DNA of 64,000 nucleotides from Escherichia coli (GTDB taxonomy: Bacteria; Pseudomonadota; Gammaproteobacteria; Enterobacterales; Enterobacteriaceae), in NCBI RefSeq assembly GCF_003019035.1, contig NZ_CP027447.1. One strand, 5' to 3'. The position numbers and the translations under genes are program-made. The notes beneath the pieces were generated by a model. That model ran no database searches, was not told the DNA's origin, and saw only the letters and a list, made by a program, of their open reading frames with translations. This document shows positions 60,650-63,587 of the stretch, in pieces. Within the stretch, counting starts at the first letter, position 1; each line of letters opens with the position of its first letter.

Positions 60650-61168
60650 TTATACGGCTTTTTTTACATCTTGTGGTTCTTGCGAAGGAGCTACAAGACC
60701 TTCCTGTTCATGAATACCATGCTCTGACAAAATCTCTTTGCGCTCTTCTGCTGGTAAAGTTTCTAGCATTTGGGCGAGTTGTATGCACTCACGCGATACG
60801 CCGTGCAGAGATTGGATTTGAGTCTGATCAAAGATACTTGGCATTAGTGCACTAAGTCCACCTTTACTAAGTAGCTTTAATGCCCTCTGGATTTCCTCTG
60901 GTTCTAACTCTGCAACCAAAGCCATTAACACAGAAGCTAACTTATAAGCTGACTTATCGTTATCTAATAACTGCGCCCCTCCTAATTCTGCCTGAGTGGC
61001 ATCAGGTAATGAGCTGATATGGTATTCATAAGCAACACCCTTTACTCCTTTGATCTGTCTCTTTTTCCATCCCTCATTAGTTGCTTTGCGGCTAATACTA
61101 CTTGCTGAAGACGGAAGACCAGCAACCCCTTGTAGCTCTTTAGCTGAAAACCATTCTTGTGTCATCAC
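60650..61168 (-). CDS. Transposable-phage repressor c (D108-like N-terminal DNA-binding domain), about 172 aa
   Basis: Track ORF; N-terminus is a paralog of the transposase N-terminus (…WFSAKELQG…GLP…S…ISRKA…[15 protein letters not shown]…). Confidence 0.7.
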
Positions 61169-61365
61169 AAACCTCGCTTTAAATACACGATGTATTCAAA
61201 GAAATGAAAAATATATTCACTTTAAAATCATCGAGATAGATGAATTTCAAACAAAACATTTGAATACACTATTGCATTGACAATGTATTCACACTAGCAT
61301 TACTGCATACCTTATCAGCTACCTTGCGGCGTAGCTGATGGCGTAGCTTGTGAGGATTGCATTTT
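61169..61365. promoter_or_regulatory. Operator and divergent early/repressor promoter region between c and ner
   Basis: Position between divergent c and ner; AT-rich, with inverted repeat atcagctac-N8-gtagctgat. Confidence 0.45.
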
Positions 61366-61584
61366 ATGGCGATAAAGAAAAGTAAATGTGAAGACAAAAG
61401 TAGATACGACATTGTTGCTGATCTGCGCAAAAGAGGAAAAAGCCTAGCAGCTCTTGGTCGTGAGAACGGTCTCTCTATCTCTACGGTAAAAAATGCCTTG
61501 GATAAACCTTACCCTCGGGGGGAAAGAATCATTGCCGATGCATTGGGAGTTGAGCCACGAGACATCTGGCCTTCGAGGTATTGA
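61366..61584 (+). CDS. ner: Ner-like DNA-binding protein, 72 aa
   Basis: ATG at 61366 with GAGGA ribosome-binding site; …[29 protein letters not shown] is a Ner/Nlp-family signature. Confidence 0.7.
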
Positions 61585-61586
61585 AA

Positions 61587-63587
61587 ATGCAACCACAATG
61601 TAATGATTGGTTTTCTGCAAAGAAATTAGAAGGGCTGATAGGTCTTCCAAAATCCTCTAGCGCGATCTCTCGTAAAGCAAGGTTAGAACAGTGGGTGTTT
61701 CGACAGATACACGGGGTAAGAGGAGTAGCCTATGAGTTTCATATCTCATCTTTACCAAAGGAAACGCAAGCTGCGTTGTTGCTTAGACAAGGAGAGATCG
61801 AAACAAGCCAGGGCCGTTTTGAAATCGCCCGCCCCACGCTGGAAGCCCATGATTATGATCGTGAGGCACTGTGGAGCAAATGGGATAACGCCAGCGATTC
61901 CCAGCGCAGACTTGCTGAAAAATGGTTGCCTGCGGTTCAGGCCGCAGACGAAATGCTGAACCAGGGGATTTCAACAAAAACGGCTTTTGCGACCGTTGCA
62001 GGGCATTACCAGGTCAGCGCATCCACTTTGCGGGACAAGTATTACCAGGTACAGAAGTTTGCGAAGCCTGACTGGGCGGCTGCGCTTGTTGATGGACGTG
62101 GTGCATCCCGTCGCAACGTTCACAAAAGTGAATTTGACGAGGATGCCTGGCAGTTTCTGATTGCAGATTATCTGCGACCGGAAAAGCCCGCCTTCCGCAA
62201 ATGTTATGAGCGTCTGGAACTGGCAGCCCGCGAGCATGGCTGGAGTATTCCCTCCCGTGCCACGGCCTTTCGCCGGATTCAGCAACTGGACGAGGCAATG
62301 GTTGTTGCCTGTCGTGAAGGTGAACATGCACTGATGCATCTGATACCGGCACAGCAGCGAACTGTGGAACACCTGGACGCCATGCAGTGGATCAACGGCG
62401 ACGGTTATCTGCATAACGTCTTTGTACGCTGGTTTAACGGTGATGTGATCCGCCCGAAAACATGGTTCTGGCAGGATGTGAAAACCCGAAAAATTCTGGG
62501 CTGGCGCTGCGATGTGAGCGAGAACATTGATTCAATTCGCCTCTCGTTCATGGATGTTGTGACTCGCTACGGTATCCCGGAGGATTTTCACATCACCATT
62601 GATAACACCCGTGGTGCTGCGAATAAATGGCTGACGGGAGGCGCGCCCAATCGCTACCGCTTTAAGGTAAAAGAGGACGATCCAAAAGGACTGTTTTTAC
62701 TGATGGGGGCGAAAATGCACTGGACAAGCGTTGTTGCCGGTAAAGGCTGGGGCCAGGCAAAACCTGTTGAACGTGCTTTCGGTGTTGGTGGGCTTGAGGA
62801 ATACGTTGATAAGCATCCGGCACTGGCTGGCGCATATACGGGGCCTAATCCGCAGGCAAAACCTGATAACTATGGCGACCGCGCTGTTGATGCAGAGCTG
62901 TTTCTGAAAACCCTTGCCGAAGGTGTGGCGATGTTCAATGCCAGAACAGGCCGTGAAACAGAAATGTGCGGAGGCAAACTTTCGTTTGATGACGTTTTTG
63001 AGCGTGAATACGCCAGAACGATTGTGCGTAAGCCTACCGAAGAGCAAAAACGGATGCTGTTACTGCCTGCCGAGGCGGTGAACGTTTCACGTAAAGGCGA
63101 GTTCGCGCTTAAAGTTGGCGGCTCCCTTAAAGGTGTGAAAAACGTTTATTACAACATGGCGTTAATGAATGCCGGAGTGAAAAAAGTTGTGGTCAGATTT
63201 GATCCACAGCAGTTACACAGCACGGTTTATTGCTACACCCTGGACGGTCGGTTTATCTGTGAAGCGGAATGTCTGGCACCTGTTGCGTTTAATGATGCTG
63301 CGGCAGGCCGTGAATATCGCCGCCGCCAGAAACAACTGAAATCTGCGACGAAAGCAGCAATTAAGGCACAGAAACAAATGGATGCACTGGAAGTGGCAGA
63401 GCTGCTGCCGCAGATAGCCGAACCTGAAGCACCAGAATCACGAATTGTCGGCATTTTCCGGCCTTCCGGTAATACGGAACGGGTGAAGAATCAGGAGCGT
63501 GATGATGAATACGAAACTGAGCGTGATGAATATCTGAATCATTCGCTGGATATTCTGGAACAGAACAGACGTAAAAAAGCCATTTAA
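61587..63587 (+). CDS. Mu-family DDE transposase A, about 666 aa
   Basis: Track ORF 61581..63587; from about residue 60 matches MuA as I recall it (…[13 protein letters not shown]…[37 protein letters not shown]…). Confidence 0.9.

Follow-up and report, generated by a model that had tools for sequence, protein, structure and literature searches.

Which immunity type does a Mu-like prophage possess when its backbone is that of phage Mu and its early control genes are not? The question is raised by the end of a 64,000-nucleotide stretch of Escherichia coli DNA (RefSeq assembly GCF_003019035.1, contig NZ_CP027447.1), called the window below. A transposable prophage of the Mu family starts at 60311, and its left end takes up the remaining 3.7 kb of the window. 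The textbook example of one small block that sets both immunity and the enhancer usable by the transposase is the pair Mu and D108. Divergence of their control regions and similarity between the N-termini of repressor c and transposase A were reportedly described already in 1985-86, in papers cited in PMC3820752. A preliminary description of the window had called its early region D108-type. Comparison of the sequences leads us to another answer. It is probable that this prophage has a Mu backbone (the left end attL, A from residue ~55-67, and B) in which the control cassette of ~1 kb has been exchanged whole for a third allele, that of Escherichia phage PhiR68_1. The cassette is a third version of a known swappable immunity module, already sequenced and, in the literature searched, nowhere recognised as an immunity type of its own.

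Gene content and borders of the cassette

The early region consists of a leftward c gene and a rightward ner-A-B operon just inside the Mu-type left end (Table 1), and the divergent arrangement of c and ner-A-B is shared with Mu (AF083977). The c protein has a type-specific N-terminal winged-helix DNA-binding domain and a Mu-like C-terminal part. A Ner-family protein is encoded directly upstream of A, with the stop codon of ner only 2 nt ahead of the ATG of A. The A protein has the full domain architecture of MuA, that is, I-alpha, I-beta/gamma, the DDE core and the C-terminal domain; its codons 1 to ~55-67 (61587 to ~61786) form a type-specific I-alpha domain, the part that binds the enhancer in the Mu family. 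The preliminary description began A with MKMQPQ, which corresponds to a TTG at 61581, two codons before the ATG. The ATG at 61587 is preferred here, because it is preceded at 8 nt by GAGG (61575-61578) and because both RefSeq and the PhiR68_1 record annotate it as the start.

How far does the resemblance to Mu reach? Between 60311 and 60660 the DNA is 98-100% identical to Mu, and over 60661-60769, the last ~39 codons of c, identity is ~83-86%. No similarity to Mu is detectable at the DNA level from ~60770 to 61748. Identity resumes at ~61749, about codon 55 of A, and stays at 94-100% from ~61800; from 62311 to 64000 the window is 98-99.5% identical to Mu, D108 and PhiR68_1. The junctions with Mu are sharp at both edges of the cassette, as judged by 50-nt sliding identity, megablast and blastn. 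Thus, the parts shared with Mu are attL, the last ~39 codons of c (86% of nucleotides), A from residue ~55, and B. At the protein level, c is 42-43% identical to Mu c and shorter (171 versus 196 amino acids), Ner is 44% identical, and A is 43-45% identical over its first 70-80 residues and 99% over the remainder. All these values except the last are far below 95%, and the preliminary description was right in several respects: that the region is not canonical Mu, that Ner and the N-terminus of A are unlike those of Mu (Mu A does start with MELWVSPKE), that A follows MuA closely from about residue 60 (past residue ~55-67 it is 99% identical to Mu, D108 and PhiR68_1 alike), and that the divergence falls in the very block, c, ner and the 5′ end of A, in which Mu and D108 differ. 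The Mu immunity type does not fit these identities (42, 44 and 43-45%), nor does it fit the count of Mu operator words (0 versus 6) and an IHF site with two mismatches, both described below.

Does the cassette then belong to D108 (GQ357916)? In this comparison the divergent part extends from ~60361 to ~61786. The c proteins are 39% identical, the Ner proteins 63%, and the N-termini of A 46-49%. Neither megablast nor blastn finds any match to D108 inside the cassette, and D108 aligns from ~61787 of the window onward only. Members of the D108 type are much closer to each other. SfMu is identical to D108 at 90% in c, 99% in Ner and 94% in the N-terminus of A, and the published figures are the same as those computed here (PMC4406740). 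The corresponding values for the prophage XJ34 are 89, 99 and 94%. By these identities, and by the lack of a nucleotide match within the cassette, assignment to the D108 type is rejected. D108 and SfMu share with the window the gene order, the right-hand junction at the same point in A (~61787), a c protein of nearly the same length (174 versus 171 amino acids) and a Ner protein ending in WPSRY. The N-terminal 62 residues of c are 50-53% identical to those of D108 and SfMu and 27% to Mu, while its C-terminal 82 residues are 61% identical to Mu, as whose c the protein ends, and 33% to D108. Therefore, the c gene is itself mosaic, its N-terminal domain being nearer to D108 and its C-terminal part nearer to Mu. 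In the C-terminal half of c and in the attL-proximal segment 60361-60650 D108 differs from the window, which is Mu-like instead (the latter segment is 96-100% identical to Mu and 62-86% to D108).

The closest phage is PhiR68_1 (PV340575.1), which is 97.6% identical to the window over 60306-62000 (~1.7 kb) and 97-98% within the cassette, with 97.3-97.6% of nucleotides identical across c, the spacer, ner and the 5′ end of A. Its c protein is 95-96% identical, Ner 99%, and residues 1-70 of A 100%, and its candidate operator words and the core of its Ner palindrome are those of the window. The differences amount to ~2-3% substitutions, mostly in the spacer between c and ner (90-94% identity over 61161-61310), and the arm of its Ner palindrome is 8 bp, versus 9 bp in the window. 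The GenBank record of PhiR68_1 dates from 2025, gives E. coli C as host and is annotated in generic terms only. Its immunity type is not discussed in the one paper found that names the PhiR68 phages, where they appear only as PhiR68.2.

Paralogous N-termini of the repressor and the transposase

The N-termini of c and A are paralogous, as the preliminary description had noticed: 39 of 58 aligned residues are identical, PF02316 is found in both, and both match the structures 1TNS (MuA I-alpha) and 1G4D (the DNA-binding domain of Mu repressor). The same paralogy exists in Mu. What differs from type to type is the recognition-helix segment. It reads ASSISRKA in c and SSAISRKA in A of the window, ATNITRKA in c and A alike of D108 and SfMu, and VAGVHYRA in c and SAGVIYVA in A of Mu. 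Thus, the segment is common to c and A within a type and different between types, and the pattern A-T-N-I-T-R-K-A of D108 stands against S-x-x-I-S-R-K-A in the window. A matrix of c-versus-A scores over the whole domain sets Mu apart, but not D108 from the type of the window; the recognition-helix segment alone is type-specific in this comparison. In the DNA, the stretches that encode the N-termini of c (61113-61156) and A (61605-61648), which lie on opposite strands, form a weak inverted repeat of 44 nt with 70% identity that flanks the control region and ner. We dropped this repeat as a meaningful feature, because 44 nt at 70% is too weak.

Control region between c and ner

The spacer between c and ner is 200 bp long and keeps the layout of the family with repeated words of its own. 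The 64-kb window has exactly four copies of the word TGTATTCA, its complement counted too, and three of these lie within 61150-61400 (251 bp), where 0.02 would be expected. Two further copies with one mismatch are found in the same interval, and the copies are arranged as two inverted pairs. In an unbiased count of 7-mers, GAATACA/GTATTCA is the top repeated word of the spacer. We infer from the sequence which sites may be operators and where an early promoter may lie. One candidate operator or enhancer site is upstream of the c start, and the other contains a perfect TTGACA hexamer (61277-61282, read from the sequence) that could be the -35 element of an early promoter; TTGCAT-17-TAGCAT (61272-61300) is a second promoter candidate read by hand. 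In an alignment with D108 and SfMu, words of the TGATTTCA type stand at the positions of the TGTATTCA sites, with two of eight bases different, and no exact copy of TGATTTCA exists in 61150-61400. CTTTTYNR, the Mu operator consensus, occurs six times in the control region of Mu, not once in that of the window, and not once in that of D108. The candidate Ner operator is a perfect inverted repeat. In D108 it reads CCGTGAGCTAC-N8-GTAGCTCACGG, with the AGCTAC core and the 8-bp spacer as in the window and with different outer bases. Between the two candidate operators lies a weak IHF-like site, which aligns with the site of D108; a scan for the IHF consensus gave no match at one mismatch or fewer in the control region of the window, and a perfect IHF site is found only in Mu.

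Among nine sequences of the third type, variable columns make up 29% of the attL-to-c segment (60470-60649) and 20% of the c-ner spacer (61166-61365), and 2.5% of the 5′ end of A, 4.1% of ner and 6.8% of c. The flanks of the cassette are separately mosaic, because the attL-to-c segment and the spacer vary far more than the coding parts. One member of the type, bR_120, has a c protein of 177 amino acids.

Distribution among E. coli and other Enterobacterales

How common is such a cassette? In a set of 5426 complete E. coli genomes, 88 contain the conserved body of A, at 101 places. The Mu block is found in 27 genomes, a good number of which are laboratory strains, the D108 block in 45, and the block of the window in 14, at 15 places that are all chromosomal and, in every case examined, at different sites. 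The three types together fall short of the 101 places of A. SE11 and N1286 carry a fourth type. Its control region occupies the equivalent place ahead of the shared conserved body of A, and its Ner belongs to HTH_35. Its repressor, of 202 amino acids, has an N-terminus of the Cro/C1 type (HTH_3) and no Mu winged helix, so that repressor and transposase N-terminus are not paralogous in this type. In comparison with the window, c is 35-37% identical, Ner 40% and the N-terminus of A 29%; against all the other types, Ner of SE11 (NC_011415.1, 2695000-2697400) and N1286 is 36-40% identical and the N-terminus of A 29-36%.

The cassette closest to that of the window, at 99.9%, is in strain MIN10 beside cyaY. 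A c protein identical to that of the window is encoded on 844 contigs, where it is named only as a DNA-binding protein of Enterobacterales, and its protein cluster has members from E. coli, Salmonella and Cronobacter. Public annotation of the c gene of the cassette is likewise generic, either "DNA-binding protein" or "repressor". E. coli 22KM0354 (NZ_CP151071.1), an isolate from dog blood, carries three Mu-like prophages with intact c, ner, A and B, one each of the Mu, D108 and third types, and MIN10 has the third type and the Mu type together. Such co-residence of types in 22KM0354 and MIN10 is what heteroimmunity predicts. The B and Kil proteins of the prophages in 22KM0354 have identical accessions (WP_001026710.1 and WP_000968312.1, respectively), which suggests homogenised backbones or recent exchange of the cassettes.

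A possible mechanism of the cassette

In Mu, the repressor sites between c and ner double as the transposition enhancer. By homology with Mu, in which the scheme is established, the N-terminal winged helix of c would bind the TGTATTCA-type sites in the spacer and shut off a rightward early promoter of ner-A-B. After induction or infection, Ner would bind its palindrome and tune the divergent promoters. The I-alpha domain of A, a paralog of the repressor domain, would bind the same spacer sites, which would then act as the transposition enhancer. If c and the I-alpha domain of A bind the same sites as proposed, repressor and transposase would compete at one DNA element. Since the proteins are encoded next to their DNA sites, the parts of the cassette would be inherited and exchanged together, and this joint inheritance would set superinfection immunity and the matching of enhancer and transposase. 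As the trans-acting factors and the cis-acting sites are within ~1 kb and are flanked by nearly identical backbones, the cassette is supposed to be exchangeable by homologous recombination. The sharp junctions, the mosaic c gene and the variable left flank of members of the third type fit such an exchange.

What specificity does the cassette have? Most likely it has an immunity and an enhancer specificity of its own. It is very likely heteroimmune to Mu. Heteroimmunity to D108 is likely and not secure. We lean, by a small degree, to a stronger proposal, in which the third specificity is fully orthogonal: it would be heteroimmune to Mu as well as to D108, its enhancer and transposase would form a pair of their own, and its difference from D108 would be a dinucleotide swap in the operator half-site, from TGATTTCA to TGTATTCA, matched by two or three residues of the recognition helix (ATNITRKA to SxxISRKA).

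Alternative explanations and points against a third allele

It might be supposed that the early region is D108-type after all and that the prophage is homoimmune with D108. The divergence is in the same block that distinguishes D108 from Mu, Ner is nearer to D108 (63% versus 44% to Mu), as is the DNA-binding domain of c (50-53% versus 27%), the Ner-operator layout and the operator word, unrelated to that of Mu, resemble those of D108, and c and A of the two types give high scores in cross-comparison. Yet true D108-type phages such as SfMu and XJ34 keep 89-100% identity in the three proteins, of which the window has 39% in c, 63% in Ner and 46-49% in the N-terminus of A. Nucleotide matches to D108 in the block and exact D108 operator words are both missing, the Ner palindrome has other outer bases, and the left end follows Mu just where D108 departs from it. 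Moreover, an intact D108-type prophage and an intact third-type prophage coexist in 22KM0354. Homoimmunity with D108 is thus improbable. Judged by alignment, the label "D108-type" given in the preliminary description is wrong in the strict sense, and is loosely right if it is taken to mean closer to D108 than to Mu, as is true of the DNA-binding domain of c, of Ner, and of the architecture and word of the operators.

Can the block be a functionless remnant, drifted in a decaying and defective Mu prophage? No more than 3.7 kb of the prophage can be seen, there is an extra A after L1 (8 versus 7 in Mu), and the spacer is variable among relatives. On the other hand, the open reading frames of c, ner and A are intact with good ribosome-binding sites and strong domain matches, the block is 97-98% identical to that of a deposited phage whose host is E. 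coli C, and an identical c protein is found on 844 contigs across genera. The coding parts have 2.5-6.8% variable columns versus 20% in the spacer, indicating constraint, and the divergence from Mu is sharp-edged, not diffuse. Decay is therefore a weaker candidate than a D108-type early region, and we consider it very unlikely. Weakest of all is an artefact of assembly, or a chimera, joining the Mu backbone to unrelated DNA: nothing specific speaks for it beyond the abrupt junctions that bring it to mind, and it is already refuted, since 14 complete genomes, independent of one another, and one phage genome contain the block joined to A and B at the same points. A cassette that is present at different sites in those 14 genomes, in a phage whose record names E. 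coli C as host, and through its c protein on 844 contigs is real and maintained.

Several points weigh against reading the cassette as a third allele with a specificity of its own. The c protein of D108 scores 180 against A of the window and 158 against A of D108 itself. With operator words that are two of eight bases apart, partial cross-recognition with D108 is conceivable. The assignment of operators is an argument from word enrichment; among the nine third-type sequences, the candidate sites have 7 variable positions out of 58 versus 33 out of 142 in the rest of the spacer, a trend in the expected direction that is not significant (Fisher p=0.08). The IHF site, perfect in Mu, has one mismatch in D108 and two in the window, and a promoter scan of 60300-61700 gave no match to the sigma-70 consensus. 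Co-residence of types is no proof of heteroimmunity, because one genome, cS51a, has two places that match the same third-type block. The left 3.7 kb is the only part of the prophage inside the window. Finally, literature searches found no description of a third immunity type in the Mu family, nor of this allele as one.

Left end and insertion site

The prophage breaks ddpA (window 59054-60310, minus strand), the gene for the substrate-binding protein of a D,D-dipeptide ABC transporter (Pfam SBP_bac_5 on the host side), at 60310/60311. The insertion cuts off the 3′ 419 codons of ddpA and the downstream permease genes (58030-59052 and 57137-58033) from the promoter side. The 5 bp abutting the prophage, TTCAG, fit the target preference of Mu, N-Y-G/C-R-N. 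The junction of ddpA and the prophage is absent from all 5426 complete E. coli genomes searched, as is expected of a phage that transposes randomly. From 60311 the prophage reads TGTATTGATTCACTTGAAGTACGAAAA, and the end-site core consensus RAARYRCGAAAR, taken from the annotation of the D108 record, has three copies in attL and four in the whole 64-kb window, where 0.52 would be expected. The A-run past the L1 core (60333-60340) has 8 A in the window versus 7 in Mu, D108 and PhiR68_1, and this may be a real 1-bp difference or a sequencing error in a homopolymer. Apart from the prophage, the sole Rfam match in the window is a selenocysteine insertion element, SECIS_3, at 46462-46520 (+; 84 bits), presumably within a formate dehydrogenase gene, and there are no tRNA genes across the 64 kb.

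Table 1. Coordinates of the prophage features in the window; sites called candidate or presumed are assigned from the sequence.
Feature	Position	Strand	Basis
c repressor, 171 amino acids from ATG	60650..61165	-	PF02316 (E=4.9e-23); PDB 1G4D, 1TNS
ner, 72 amino acids	61366..61584	+	PF13693 HTH_35 (E=2.1e-25)
Transposase A, 666 amino acids	61587..63587	+	PF02316 + PF09039 + PF02914 + PF09299; PDB 1TNS (E=5.5e-15)
Transposition gene B, 5′ part, running past the window end	63626..64000	+	Annotated B in reference phages
Divergent "immunity cassette" versus Mu: most of c, c-ner control region, ner, A codons 1 to ~54	~60770..61748		50-nt sliding identity; megablast/blastn junctions
Candidate operator/enhancer site 1, CTTTAAATACA-cga-TGTATTCAAAG	61177..61201		Upstream of c start; inverted repeat and word enrichment; function inferred
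Candidate operator/enhancer site 2, TGAATACA-N15-TGTATTCA	61261..61291		Inverted repeat and word counts
Candidate Ner operator, ATCAGCTAC-N8-GTAGCTGAT	61314..61339		Perfect 9-bp inverted repeat, 27 nt upstream of ner ATG
Weak IHF-like site AATCATCGAGATA	61226..61238	+	2 mismatches to WATCARNNNNTTR; between the two candidate operators; aligns with D108 site
Presumed target-site copy, host 5 bp TTCAG	60306..60310		Read from sequence; abuts prophage end
Mu-type left end attL, beginning TGTATTGATTCAC	60311..60483	+	98-100% identical to Mu
End-site cores L1, L2, L3	60326-60337, 60432-60443, 60472-60483		Matches to RAARYRCGAAAR

Meaning for the Mu family

What does a third allele add? Understanding of the control system of the Mu family itself is unchanged by it. 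Together with the fourth type, it makes the block multi-allelic in natural E. coli, Salmonella and Cronobacter, and this helps to explain how three nearly identical Mu-like prophages are found in one strain. The matched sets of repressor, operator and transposase domain may be of use for studies of recognition by winged helices or for orthogonal Mu transposition systems. If the fully orthogonal specificity proposed above is true, the immunity locus of Mu-like phages of E. coli would be multi-allelic, with four alleles or more once the SE11 type is counted, and would provide a natural series of specificity switches and orthogonal parts for Mu-based transposition tools.

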